The position numbers were made by a program, and so were the translations under genes. A stretch of DNA of 64,000 nt, from the NCBI GenBank assembly GCA_964384235.1, contig CAYLJX010000003.1:8389-72388 (forward strand). Direction: 5' to 3'. The stretch is from an uncultured Bdellovibrionales bacterium. GTDB lineage: Bacteria > Patescibacteriota > Minisyncoccia > Moranbacterales > UBA1568. The notes under the pieces are model-generated. The model did not search any database. It saw only the letters and a program-made list of their open reading frames with translations, and was not told the DNA's origin. This document shows positions 5,101 through 8,847 of this stretch, piece after piece; positions within the stretch are counted from its first letter, which is position 1, and the number at the start of each line of letters is the position of its first letter.

Positions 5101-5286
5101 GACAAACCTCTCTTTCTTTCAGTTATTAACAGTACTGCCTCCGTCAGCTTTTCAATCGAAAAGCCGATACTCCAAGATACGGGTTTGAGGGGTTGGTGTC
5201 AAATAAATAAGGCTCTGCCCGTTCGATTCCCTAGCCCTAAGGGGAATCCTCTTCCCTCGCCATTCCGCACGGAGGCTCCGCAGTTT

Positions 5287-5431
5287 GGCCTAAGGGGAAT
5301 TCCGCCTCGCGGTCTGCTGACCGCTTCGTTGTCCGGGGCAGCGCCAGATGCTCGCTTGCTCGCATCCGTCGACACTCGCCAGTTTCGCCTTCGCGAAAAG
5401 ACTTGCTCCTGCCCGTTCGATTCCCCTTAGG
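5287..5431. repeat. tRNA-3'-end-mimicking structured element, copy A (core shared with 6052-6195)
   Basis: A ~130 nt core is near-identical to copy B, including a 48 nt perfect block aattccgcctcgcggtctgctgaccgcttcgttgtccggggcagcgcc. The left flank cctaaggggaat copies the plus-strand image of the tRNA-Glu 3' end. The right flank gttcgattccccttagg is the same segment inverted. A further 17 nt direct copy tagccctaaggggaatc lies at 5229-5245. Confidence 0.7.
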
Positions 5432-5438
5432 ATAACAA

Positions 5439-5476
5439 AGTAAATACCCACCCCATAATGGGGTGGGTATTTACTT
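5439..5476. terminator. bidirectional intrinsic terminator hairpin (AAGTAAATACCCACCCC-ATAA-TGGGGTGGGTATTTACTT)
   Basis: A perfect 17-bp palindrome with A/T runs on both sides lies immediately 3' of tRNA-Glu on the minus strand and 3' of element A on the plus strand. Confidence 0.6.
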
Positions 5477-5482
5477 AATTTG

Positions 5483-5554
5483 TAGCCCTAAGGGGAATCG
5501 AACCCCTGTTTTCTCCGTGAGAGGGAGATGTCCTAGCCGCTAGACGATAGGGCC
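5483..5554 (-). tRNA. tRNA-Glu (anticodon CUC)
   Basis: Manually folded as GGCCCTA/TAGGGCT acceptor (G1:U72), D-arm GTCT..GGAC, anticodon stem TCTCC/GGAGA with loop CTCTCAC, and T-arm AGGGG-TTCGATT-CCCCT. CCA is not encoded. Confidence 0.7.
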
Positions 5555-5575
5555 AAATTTTGAAAACCTTCTTAG

Positions 5576-5646
5576 CAGGGGCGGTAGGAATCGAACCCAC
5601 GCAAAGGGTTTTGGAGACCCTTGTACTACCATTATACGACGCCCCC
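5576..5646 (-). tRNA. tRNA-Trp (anticodon CCA)
   Basis: Acceptor GGGGGCG/CGCCCCT, anticodon stem AGGGT/ACCCT with loop CTCCAAA, and T-loop TTCGATT. It lies next to rpmG as in many bacteria. Confidence 0.75.
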
Positions 5647-5663
5647 GTGAAGAAAACCGAGAA

Positions 5664-5804
5664 CTACTTGCTCTCGGTATGGGTCGTGTTCTTCTTGCAG
5701 AATCGGCAATACTTGCTGAGAGAAAGCTTTTCCTTGACCTTCTTCTTGTTGCGCTTGGTGTAGTGCGTGATGCGGCCGCAGGCGGAGCACTTCATCTTGG
5801 CCAT
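5664..5804 (-). CDS. rpmG: 50S ribosomal protein L33
   Basis: Not in the ORF track. MAKMKCSACGRITHYTKRNKKKVKEKLSLSKYCRFCKKNTTHTESK has a C-x2-C...C-x2-C zinc ribbon and an MAK start typical of L33. An alternative in-frame ATG lies at 5825. Confidence 0.8.
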   Translation of the reverse strand: MAKMKCSACGRITHYTKRNKKKVKEKLSLSKYCRFCKKNTTHTESK

Positions 5805-5902
5805 CGTGTCTTTGATCTGTCCCATACCGTTTCATTAAAACAAAAAATACGCTTCGAAAAGCTTCCCTACTCTACGCGAAAAACGGCTTTTCGTCAACAC
5901 TG

Positions 5903-5975
5903 AGCCGTTGACCGGGATTGAACCGGTGACCCCCACCTTACCATGGTGGTGCTCTACCAGCTGAGCTACAACGGC
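5903..5975 (-). tRNA. tRNA-Thr (anticodon GGU)
   Basis: GCCGTTG/CAACGGC acceptor, D-arm GCTC-AGCTGGTA-GAGC, anticodon stem CCACC/GGTGG with loop ATGGTAA, and T-arm ACCGG-TTCAATC-CCGGT. Confidence 0.8.
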
Positions 5976-6051
5976 TTGTTCAAAACTAAAGAACAAATCC
6001 CGATAATTATCAGGACTTTTTCTATTGTAATGTTTTTCTGAGAAAAGTCTA

Positions 6052-6195
6052 GGGCAGGGAGGGAATTCCGCCTCGCGGTCTGCTGACCGCTTCGTTGTCC
6101 GGGGCAGCGCCGAATGCTCGCTTACTCGCATCCGTCGACACTCGCCAATCTCGCCTTCGCTCGACGGCTCGCTCCTGCCCGTTCGAATCCCTCCC
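6052..6195. repeat. tRNA-3'-end-mimicking structured element, copy B (core shared with 5287-5431)
   Basis: Same conserved core as copy A. The left flank gggcagggaggga is identical to the plus-strand image of the tRNA-Tyr 3' end 190 bp away. The right flank cccgttcgaatccctcccc is the tRNA-Tyr T-loop and 3' stem inverted. It occupies the slot where tRNA-Gly sits in the common thr-tyr-gly-thr cluster. Confidence 0.7.
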
Positions 6196-6206
6196 CATAC
6201 TCAAAC

Positions 6207-6246
6207 AAAAGAGAAAAGGTACCCTCCAGGGTACCTTTTCTCTTTT
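6207..6246. terminator. bidirectional intrinsic terminator hairpin (AAAAGAGAAAAGGTACCCT-CC-AGGGTACCTTTTCTCTTTT)
   Basis: A perfect 19-bp palindrome with T/A tracts on both sides sits between element B and the 3' end of tRNA-Tyr. Confidence 0.6.
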
Positions 6247-6249
6247 TGT

Positions 6250-6332
6250 GGGCAGGGAGGGATTCGAACCCCCGAAGACCGAAGTCGCCTGATTTACAGT
6301 CAGGTGCGATTGACCGCTCCGCCACCTACCCA
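6250..6332 (-). tRNA. tRNA-Tyr (anticodon GUA), type II with long variable arm
   Basis: GGGTAGG/CCTGCCC acceptor, anticodon stem CCTGA/TCAGG with loop CTGTAAA, variable-arm hairpin GACTTCGGTC, and T-arm GGGGG-TTCGAAT-CCCTC. Confidence 0.8.
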
Positions 6333-6487: not shown

Positions 6488-7093
6488 CTATATCCTATAT
6501 TCCTTGATCCAAAGATTTATCTGGTTCAACAGTTTCTTATCCGAATAATTGATAACTAACGTACCATATGGGGATTTTTTCTTATATGTCCCTTTCTTAC
6601 CGACATGGACATAGGACTTATAGAAATTTTGCTTCTGCACCTTCGTAATGCCGGACCAAAAACCTATCAGTTCTTGCTCATCATGGTCAGGATACATGTG
6701 TATAAGCAATTTCAGACGACTTTCCCAAATTCCACAGACTTCCCGGAGAAACCGAAGAAACAGTCTTATCATGTCAGGATCACTATTCACAAACTTCACC
6801 GTACTCCATCCCTTACATCCTTCAGCCCAATACAGCATAACCCCTGCCAACCGAAGTTTCTCCTCTTCACCATAAAAAGTCTTCTTGAGTACCAGTGGTT
6901 TTTTATGAAATTTCGTTATATGCCACTGGGTGACAGCATCACTCCTCGAACGGCGGACTACTCCATTCTTATTCAGGTAATATACAACTGACGAAGAAGG
7001 AACGTTAAATTTCTTCGCTATCTGAGCCATGGAAAGCCCTTCTTTGAGATAGGATTCTACAAACTTTTTCTGTATATTCTTCGATATTGCCAT
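6488..7093 (-). CDS. hypothetical HTH-domain protein, possible LAGLIDADG-like homing endonuclease, encoded in an AT-rich islet
   Basis: A 201 aa ORF in a ~35% GC segment within a ~58% GC region. The N-terminus LSMAQIAKKFNVPSSSVVYYL resembles a sigma-70 region-4/transposase-type HTH. The central LRLAGVMLYWAEGCKG is loosely LAGLIDADG-like. It lies directly upstream of tRNA-Thr(UGU). Confidence 0.6.
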   Translation of the reverse strand: MAISKNIQKKFVESYLKEGLSMAQIAKKFNVPSSSVVYYLNKNGVVRRSRSDAVTQWHITKFHKKPLVLKKTFYGEEEKLRLAGVMLYWAEGCKGWSTVKFVNSDPDMIRLFLRFLREVCGIWESRLKLLIHMYPDHDEQELIGFWSGITKVQKQNFYKSYVHVGKKGTYKKKSPYGTLVINYSDKKLLNQINLWIKEYRI

Positions 7094-8262: not shown

Positions 8263-8847
8263 TTACATCTCGTAGCGGATGAAGCTTCCAACCTGTATAT
8301 TCTCCCCGATTTTCTGGATCTTTTCAGTAATGAGCGCTCCGACGGTCTTGTCGGCATCCTTGACGAACGGCTGCGTGAGGAGCGCGATATCGTTTCGGAA
8401 CTTCTGTTCCTTGCCCGTCATGATCTTGTCGAGGATCTCGGCCGGCTTGCCCTCCTGGGCGAGCTGCTCACGCCAGATGGCACGTTCCTTCTCGATAGTC
8501 TCCGCCGGGACATCTTCCGGCTTCAGAAACTGCGGGGCGGCGGCGGCGATATGCATCGCGATATCCTTGCCGAGCTCCTGGAACTCTTCGTTTCGCGCCA
8601 CGAAATCGGTCTCGCAGAAGAGCTTGACCATGGCACCGACACGCTTGTTGGAATGGACGTACGAGGCGATGAATCCTTCGCGGGCCTCACGGTCGCCTTT
8701 CTTGAGGGCCTTGTCCTGGCCGCGCTTGCGAAGAATCTCGATGGCTTTCGCTTCATCGCCGTTCGCTTCCTCGAGGGCTTTCTTCACATCGACGATACCG
8801 GCGCCGGTCCGCTCACGCAGGCCTTTGATCTGTTCCAATTGACTCAT
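8263..8847 (-). CDS. tsf: elongation factor Ts (short form)
   Basis: N-terminal UBA-like LRERTGAGIVDVKKALEEANGDEAKAIEILRKRG plus a dimerisation core. 194 aa. Confidence 0.9.
   Translation of the reverse strand: MSQLEQIKGLRERTGAGIVDVKKALEEANGDEAKAIEILRKRGQDKALKKGDREAREGFIASYVHSNKRVGAMVKLFCETDFVARNEEFQELGKDIAMHIAAAAPQFLKPEDVPAETIEKERAIWREQLAQEGKPAEILDKIMTGKEQKFRNDIALLTQPFVKDADKTVGALITEKIQKIGENIQVGSFIRYEM

Follow-up and report, generated by a model that had tools for sequence, protein, structure and literature searches.

The window examined here is a stretch of 64,000 nt (positions 8,389 to 72,388 of contig CAYLJX010000003.1, assembly GCA_964384235.1) from an uncultured bacterium labelled as a member of the Bdellovibrionales and placed by GTDB in the Patescibacteriota; all coordinates are those of the window. 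It carries five tRNA genes, all on the minus strand, for Thr(TGT), Tyr, Thr(GGT), Trp and Glu (ARAGORN and the Rfam tRNA model), with rpmG lying between tRNA-Thr(GGT) and tRNA-Trp, and pyrF downstream in the tRNA-cluster region. Homologues of the neighbouring genes carry the labels Patescibacteria or Vogelbacteria, and the window is therefore from a bacterium of the Candidate Phyla Radiation. Behind tRNA-Glu(CTC) (5482-5554; 62.9 bits with the Rfam model), the final tRNA of its operon, and behind tRNA-Tyr(GTA) (6248-6331; ARAGORN and Rfam) lie two G+C-rich segments with a common core, copy A (5289-5431) and copy B (6052-6195) respectively. These are members of an undescribed family of small structured elements, of about 90-260 bp per unit, that occupy the 3′ ends of tRNA operons, mainly in bacteria of the Candidate Phyla Radiation (CPR).

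A repeat search of the window aligned 5295-5425 with 6061-6191 as a direct repeat of 131 nt with 91% identity, in agreement with the common core of about 130 nt described in an earlier reading of these letters without database searches (hereafter, the sequence-only reading). That reading had placed copy B exactly, while copy A begins at 5289 and not at 5287, and the longest block identical in both copies measures 51 nt (5295-5345 and 6061-6111) rather than 48 nt. A 44-mer from this block occurs exactly twice in the window, against an expectation of 0 from shuffled sequence. The copies have a G+C content of 62-67%, compared with 28-30% in the adjoining spacers and 55% in the window. Copy B sits between tRNA-Tyr and tRNA-Thr(GGT), which is, as had been pointed out, the site of tRNA-Gly in many bacteria; tRNA-Gly is also missing from that slot in relatives with the same cluster.

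The cores are flanked by arms copied from the adjacent tRNA gene, and the repeat search bore out the proposal that the left flank repeats the gene's 3′ end in direct orientation and the right flank in inverted orientation. In copy A, CCTAAGGGGAAT (5289-5300) and ATTCCCCTTAGG (5420-5431) form a perfect 12 nt inverted pair, and the whole right flank, GTTCGATTCCCCTTAGG (5415-5431), reproduces 17 nt of the 3′ part of tRNA-Glu. Read on the tRNA strand (minus), 5415-5431 is the 5′ arm, an inverted copy of tRNA-Glu from G53 to about position 69, and 5289-5300 is the 3′ arm, which repeats tRNA-Glu directly, starting at A58 (12 nt exact, 15/17 overall), and pairs with the 5′ arm. The source of both is the segment of tRNA-Glu from the T-loop to the 3′ end. 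In copy B, the arms of which come from tRNA-Tyr, the left flank GGGCAGGGAGGGA (6052-6064) is identical to 6250-6262 inside the tRNA gene and forms a 3′ arm of 13 nt on the minus strand; the right flank GTTCGAATCCCTCCC (6181-6195) is its perfect inverted copy and forms a 5′ arm of 15 nt, starting from G53.

Whether the core occurs elsewhere had been named as decisive for the sequence-only reading, and about 40 homologous copies were located on 26 other contigs (nhmmer on these loci). A scan of genomes with an 18-mer from the core returned 27 contigs, seven of which carry true homologues: one in a Paceibacterota bin, one in a Saccharibacteria bin, one in a bin labelled Bdellovibrionales and four on contigs of a single bin labelled Gammaproteobacteria. 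A two-anchor pattern run against metagenomes returned 19 contigs, and all were true homologues (19/19). The sources are mostly CPR bacteria; between very distant lineages (Saccharibacteria, Paceibacterota and other bins) the window-type core keeps 65-82% identity, yet close relatives, among them one at 73% identity, lack it. When the copies were tabulated by the tRNA that each abuts, as had been proposed, the types found were Glu, Tyr, Lys, Val, Arg, Gly, Leu, Met, Gln and Ala. Wherever a canonical tRNA adjoins, the element lies downstream of the last tRNA of the cluster and on the strand of that tRNA, without exception, and at a distance of no more than about 60 nt. Copy A gave no BLAST match in plasmid and phage collections, two pattern scans of viral contigs gave none, and no description of the element was found in the literature on tRNA-adjacent structured RNAs, CPR non-coding RNAs, minihelix mimics and the TOTE conflict system.

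Two loci, L001 (Lys-type arms beside tRNA-Val) and L029 (Gly-type 3′ arm beside tRNA-Glu), are possible assembly chimeras and were excluded from the evidence. L029 (about 996-1119) has the same core, terminator and adjacent tRNA-Glu as L030 (about 1084-1207), while the 3′ arm and everything beyond it differ, being Gly-type in L029 and Glu-type in L030; this difference reflects either recombination between copies at different tRNAs or a chimeric assembly. Contigs L009 and L011 terminate inside an element, and several other contigs of this organism (L061-L064) begin or end near copy B. These cases suggest that short-read assemblies are broken by the repeat and may be joined wrongly across it, as possibly in L001 and L029.

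Across the family, the order on the tRNA strand is the tRNA, a spacer or, usually, a bidirectional terminator, the 5′ arm, the core and the 3′ arm, and in several loci a terminator resembling the original one of the tRNA lies beyond the 3′ arm. The 5′ arm of window-type copies reads as the tRNA in reverse complement, from G53 outward over 10-24 nt; copies with other core types have this arm shifted or degenerate. On the far side of the core, the 3′ arm repeats the tRNA directly, beginning at A58 or, with other core types, at G57, and in six loci it stops at the encoded 3′ end of the tRNA or no more than 2 nt past it. The inner boundaries of the arms are fixed and the outer ones variable: the direct repeat is 8 to about 68 nt long in different copies, each copy has arms of its own, matching the tRNA beside it, and units measure 91-258 bp in the loci measured. 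The adjacent tRNAs scored as intact (ARAGORN and tRNA searches of the loci). For control tRNAs without an element, the best match to their own 3′ end, inverted or direct, within 450 nt is 4-9 nt, the exception being tRNA-Trp of the window, which scores on the neighbouring tRNA-Glu and copy A. Where an element is present, the inverted match reaches 9-23 nt; the direct match is mostly 12-19 nt, the remaining tRNAs giving 6-10 nt.

The direct repeat contains CCA only where the tRNA gene encodes it, and in L043 it extends into the tRNA's own terminator (about 68 nt, 29 nt exact); these two features show that the arms were copied at the DNA level and not from mature tRNA. Within a single genome, the two slots have equal distances between A58 of the tRNA and the direct repeat, namely 198 nt in the window (5285/5483 and 6052/6250) and 153 nt in L051, despite intervening terminators that are unrelated in sequence.

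The sequence-only reading had described a perfect palindromic terminator beside each copy, and both have perfect arms of 19 nt. The palindrome between tRNA-Glu and copy A (5438-5476; arms 5438-5456 and 5458-5476) has a G+C-rich centre and A/T-rich tails, and a terminator scan flagged 5447-5467 on both strands. The one between tRNA-Tyr and copy B (6207-6246; arms 6207-6225 and 6228-6246) has the same layout by sequence, and the palindromes display the features of rho-independent terminators. A promoter scan of the window found no promoter-like site between terminator and element, and a promoter site for the next tRNA just after copy B. As in the window, tRNA operons of L051 (6247-6288) and L053 (3031-3078) close with bidirectional terminators that are unusually long, perfect palindromes (19-22 nt per arm), and the palindrome of L053 runs on into the 3′ end of the tRNA (GCTCCA...TGGAGC).

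A consensus fold of 18 distinct copies (RNAalifold) is closed by helix P1, which is formed by the two arms. Within it, the invariant helix P3 (GGGCAG/CUGCCC) encloses hairpins P5 and P4, and is followed by a conserved junction, CGGACAACGA, the variable hairpin P2 and a second conserved junction, CGAGGCGRA; the core is predicted to consist of nested three-way junctions. By this fold and the alignment, the core of copy A spans 5301-5414 (minus strand), where P3 pairs 5409-5414 with 5336-5341 and encloses P5 (about 5371-5408) and P4 (about 5343-5370), the first junction lies at 5325-5335, P2 at 5309-5324 and the second junction at 5301-5308. The core of copy B (6065-6180, minus strand) is 91% identical, with P3 pairing 6175-6180 with 6102-6107, and P2 at 6075-6090. 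In the alignment 95.9% of cells are paired and 15 of the 29 pairs show changes on both sides; these values were reached in none of 500 shuffles (0/500), and sliding the partners left about 40% paired. Judged by this covariation, the core is clearly structured.

The two strands are not equivalent in this respect. There are 27 G·U pairs on the tRNA strand and four on the opposite strand, with P4 contributing 11 to 1 and the base of P5 10 to 0; in P4 and P5 together, 21 cells are G·U on the minus strand and an A·C mismatch on the plus strand, and one cell has the opposite pattern. Folding energy is better on the tRNA strand in 20 of 28 copies, although whole-molecule energies and a pooled G·U count did not decide between the strands. 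The G·U count within the helices did, and the functional strand is the minus strand of the window, the strand of the tRNA. With the structure on this strand, the terminators lie upstream of the element and not at its end. Rfam 15 (4227 models) gave no match over the cores, and none in L031 or L034, at the gathering score or at E<=10. The covariance check advised in the sequence-only reading, for a tRNA or other known RNA, was likewise negative: the tRNA model had no match over 5286-5434 or 6051-6199 at E<=10, and ARAGORN found only the five flanking tRNAs.

Units also accumulate and change at their sites. L045 carries five tandem units of two interleaved subtypes directly behind tRNA-Gln, and L040 three units behind tRNA-Lys. 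Both L040 and the window show a gradient of decay, with an intact copy beside the tRNA and relics farther off. One relic in the window (5232-5288, minus strand) is of an older unit with a different core type, and consists of a degenerate 3′ core end (5249-5288) and an exact 17 nt repeat of the 3′ end of tRNA-Glu (5232-5248); the latter is the additional direct copy that the sequence-only reading had rightly noticed and had placed at 5229-5245. The other (5215-5231, minus strand) is a 5′ fragment of a window-type unit, consisting of GGGAATCGAAC and GGGCAG (repeat search; nhmmer match 5214-5237).

Syntenic loci of relatives were retrieved by way of the neighbouring helix-turn-helix (HTH) protein, and in the related genomes L051, L052, L057 and L063 the tRNA-Tyr and tRNA-Glu slots of the same cluster hold different cores. 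L051 has a shorter core in both slots; L052 has a third core type, in tandem, after tRNA-Tyr and none after tRNA-Glu; and in L057 there is only a 20 nt hairpin between the arms. Where both slots are filled, they hold the same core type within a genome (window, L051, L057). Contig L063, from a sister strain, is 99.8% identical to the window from rpmG through tRNA-Trp to the T arm of tRNA-Glu, past which it has another terminator, another core and a pyrF that is only 62% identical (protein). The divergence is abrupt and falls inside the 3′ part of tRNA-Glu (about 5483-5500 in the window, about 440-450 in L063), which marks the tRNA tail as a recombination boundary between lineages. The relic at 5232-5288 is homologous to the 3′ end of the L063 core, which places a newer unit between the tRNA and a truncated older unit. 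These loci show arrays, relics and turnover of cores.

Other genes near the copies were compared by all-vs-all BLASTP of their open reading frames, and proteins were common only to near-identical contigs. In two contigs, a pair of copies in the same orientation brackets a small set of defence-type genes. The copies of L031 (1402-1556 and 4487-4640) enclose genes for an HTH-Fic protein and for a protein with an AEP-TOTE primase domain, a reverse transcriptase gene lying just outside, and those of L034 (2804-2958 and 4266-4417) bracket an NTP_transf_2 gene, with a Z1-domain protein nearby. Pfam scans of both contigs returned AEP-TOTE, Fic, reverse transcriptase, NTP_transf_2 and Z1, with no recombinase or integrase and nothing recurrent, and no canonical tRNA was detected in either. 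Such bracketing is seen only in L031 and L034, and most copies bracket nothing.

Two further observations concern the surroundings of the elements. A perfect mini-palindrome of about 20 nt, CCTGCCTRCCGGYAGGCAGG, is inserted in several CPR loci at sites that have nothing in common, some of them within the present elements (in the 3′ arm of the L041 element, at L052 3166-3186, L040 4586-4606 and L014 about 885-905), and looks like a separate tiny mobile repeat. The minus-strand gene at 6488-7093 encodes a protein of about 200 aa that has no NCBIfam match and more than 100 homologues, a minority of which are named as regulators or have helix-turn-helix domains by Pfam; its gene lies between tsf and a tRNA-Thr gene in the relatives examined.

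The sequence-only reading had offered three explanations, of which a tRNA-targeting, non-autonomous mobile element is the best supported, by the association with tRNA 3′ ends, the repeat from A58 to the end of the gene, the arrays, the relics and the core turnover, with the patchy distribution across phyla pointing the same way; its variant, in which the flanks are remnants of integrase att sites, fails to explain the compensatory changes. We assign a probability of roughly 0.45 to the family being miniature, non-autonomous integrative elements that recombine at the tRNA T-loop and leave the tRNA intact. Integration is favoured because three features together are known to mark insertion into tRNA genes: a repeat from T-loop to 3′ end, a position behind the operon's final tRNA, and a tRNA regenerated intact. 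A regenerated target with a displaced fragment marks islands in tRNA genes (PMC4383910), and integration at the T-loop, with a preference against disrupting polycistronic units, is documented (10.1101/2020.11.02.365908). The present loci resemble such islands in that the tRNA is intact and its displaced 3′ fragment, starting in the T-loop, is present as a direct repeat; they depart from them in that no integrase or cargo lies between the repeats (units of 91-258 bp; Pfam scans of L031 and L034).

In the integration model, a unit would enter the tRNA gene by recombination at the T-loop and supply a replacement 3′ end, so that the tRNA stays whole and its original 3′ end is displaced behind the unit. 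The recombination activity would be supplied in trans, the covarying core on the tRNA strand would be the cis-acting part, either as a folded single-stranded DNA site or as an RNA read through from the tRNA promoter, and the arms would provide a helix with the target's own sequence. We infer that the units move and that they do so by such recombination, with a recombinase acting in trans; their intermediate might be RNA or, in the manner of integron attC sites and the hairpin site of CTX phage, folded single-stranded DNA. A bolder version, which we regard as doubtful, is a minimal mobile element made of folded nucleic acid alone, a protein-free homing cassette served by a host or phage enzyme, in which the arms would "programme" the target T-loop and the tail would be rebuilt at each insertion.

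Several observations weigh against integration. Among the open reading frames near the copies, no gene for a recombinase, transposase or reverse transcriptase recurs, and no such enzyme is known to act on a site of this kind. The model does not explain the matching of the inverted arm to each new type of tRNA, and no clean pair of empty and filled alleles was recovered among relatives, the spacer after tRNA-Glu in L052 being unalignable. The terminators beside copies A and B are unrelated in sequence, so the two copies are not recent transposition products of each other, and gene conversion is then needed to explain their 91% identity. The conserved unpaired junctions and purine-rich loop motifs of the core look like those of a functional RNA. 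Finally, most loci have a strong terminator between the tRNA promoter and the element, which makes expression of the core as RNA uncertain.

The strongest alternative, which stays a serious one although on balance unlikely, is that the elements are host non-coding RNAs that trail the tRNA operon and are made by read-through or co-transcription. Their closing helix would copy the T-stem and the acceptor 3′ strand, RNase P, RNase Z and the CCA-adding enzyme would trim and protect them, and the copies would arise by local duplication and be kept alike by gene conversion. The strong covariation and the conservation of the junctions across phyla are what such an RNA would show, the G·U bias places the structure on the appropriate strand, the tRNA-Tyr and tRNA-Glu slots are filled in most of the related genomes examined, and a helix of up to 12-13 bp corresponds to the length of the stacked acceptor and T-stem. 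In L014 and L045, moreover, the element follows the tRNA by 15-17 nt, and co-transcription is likely since there is no terminator in this short gap. Elsewhere, the intrinsic terminator directly upstream in most loci and the lack of a promoter-like site between it and the element speak against transcription. The closing helix varies from 7 to >20 bp, with one arm often only as long as the T-stem; the cores in orthologous slots are unalignable and shrink to the 20 nt hairpin of L057, which would be unusual for a conserved RNA function; and the decaying copies and mixed-subtype arrays resemble a graveyard rather than genes. The second explanation of the sequence-only reading, a structured RNA with a mimic of the T-arm and acceptor, holds in part: a structured core and a closing helix of T-stem and acceptor sequence were found, while the G·U bias assigns it to the minus strand instead of the plus strand, and the terminator is upstream instead of at its end.

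It is improbable that the units are scars of integrase-borne islands or prophages, with the direct repeats being remnants of old attachment sites and the core a leftover arm of a common site. Islands are classically recognised by a repeat that runs from T-loop to 3′ end where an operon has its final tRNA, and the paired copies around defence-type genes in L031 and L034 would fit. Against this, the tRNA-adjacent copies all lie within about 60 nt of the tRNA, no copy has an integrase or a body of kilobase scale between the repeats, compensatory base-pair changes are unexpected in arms that bind protein, and an inverted arm has no role in an attL or attR scar.

Errors of replication driven by palindromes are a further explanation, and quite improbable as a full account. 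Replication would have switched templates at the hairpin of the terminator and at the T-loop, itself palindromic (TTCGAA), leaving the tRNA tail triplicated in forward-inverted-forward order, and the core would be neutral filler. The terminators of these genomes are unusually long perfect palindromes, the one in L053 reaches the tRNA 3′ end, both terminators of L043 are duplicates of each other, and the arms without the core would make a near-perfect hairpin on the T-loop, or a perfect palindrome where the T-loop is TTCGAA, as in tRNA-Tyr. Neutral filler, though, would not have stayed 65-82% conserved across phyla with covarying helices, and the identity of the inverted arm begins at the core side and not at the terminator side. 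Such errors may nevertheless help to create the arms.

Very improbable is a small RNA of the plus strand, with its end at the bidirectional terminator and a segment antisense to the tRNA 3′ end, or a degenerate intron-bearing tRNA: the terminator does follow the element on the plus strand, a weak promoter-like site lies upstream of copy B (5979-6007) and whole-element folding energies and a crude G·U count do not decide the strand, but the bias in P4 and P5 (21 cells to 1) favours the minus strand, the terminator abuts the plus-strand 5′ end in several loci and leaves no room for a promoter, and no such tRNA was detected by ARAGORN or by Rfam at E<=10. The intron-bearing tRNA, the third explanation of the sequence-only reading, was accordingly given up, the arms copying only the 3′ part of the neighbouring tRNA.

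Other candidates were considered and rejected. An origin from mature tRNA, through a primer-binding site or a retro-copy, is contradicted by repeats that lack CCA wherever the gene lacks it, and a retron or SINE-like retroelement by CCA being present only where gene-encoded and by the occurrence of a reverse transcriptase near one copy only (L031). Insertion of the IS91 or IS200/IS605 type next to GAAC does not fit, since that junction is missing in other core types and the inverted arm would not be produced. The likeness to tmRNA, RNase P RNA and self-cleaving ribozymes is limited to short words, with no model match.

If the units are mobile, they would be the smallest tRNA-homing elements known, having no gene and only a conserved fold with target-derived arms, and they could be moved by an enzyme whose recombination activity is site-programmable. 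Should they be host RNAs, they would represent a widespread, unannotated class of CPR RNA at the ends of tRNA operons that uses a copy of the tRNA tail as its own end. Either way, they would account for recurrent assembly breaks and recombination boundaries at CPR tRNA genes, and masking or annotation of them is due in genome annotation pipelines.

Among known systems, islands and prophages in tRNA genes (tyrosine integrases, Islander-type elements, the T-loop sublocation) likewise regenerate the tRNA, leave a displaced direct repeat from T-loop to 3′ end, use the last tRNA of an operon and stack their insertions. The present element differs in its size of only about 90-260 bp, in having neither integrase nor cargo, in its extra inverted copy of the tail and its compensating core, and in the presence of one core family behind many tRNA types. 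Integron attC sites (such as the Vibrio VCR) and the hairpin site of CTX phage are also structured, imperfect palindromes of about 60-150 nt in which pairing is conserved above sequence and which act strand-specifically; they too form arrays beside a fixed site and sometimes bracket toxin-antitoxin or defence genes (compare L031 and L034), and their hairpin stem mimics a double-stranded target, as here. Unlike attC sites, the elements are accompanied by no integron integrase or attI site in the loci examined, and they do not have R''/R' boxes (RYYYAAC...GTTRRRY), the conserved end here being GTTCGAA, with C at the fourth position. They also differ from both kinds of site in their long conserved unpaired sequence, their branched junctions and the position of the target junction at the inner end of the stem.

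Miniature inverted-repeat transposable elements (MITEs) and other non-autonomous transposable elements are likewise small, multi-copy and non-coding, have foldable inverted ends, and show copies that are more alike within a genome than at the same position across genomes; here, in contrast, the inverted ends copy each target tRNA and are not conserved, there is no target duplication of fixed length, and no transposase-bearing parent element was found. The tyrT locus of E. coli has downstream repeats of 178 bp, each containing the last 19 nt of tRNA-Tyr, and these are similarly arranged in tandem behind a tRNA gene with each unit ending in a copy of the tRNA 3′-terminus. They are confined to one locus and one tRNA, and are not known to have an inverted arm, a covarying core or a spread across phyla. 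The tRNA-like RNAs (tmRNA, viral tRNA-like structures, mascRNA and bacterial YrlA) share with the element a terminal helix of acceptor-like and T-stem-like sequence that tRNA-processing enzymes could recognise. The element has no intact T arm or T-loop and no Rfam model match, and differs from them in that its helix is copied from the neighbouring gene instead of being an independent mimic, and in being present in multiple copies, some of them decaying.

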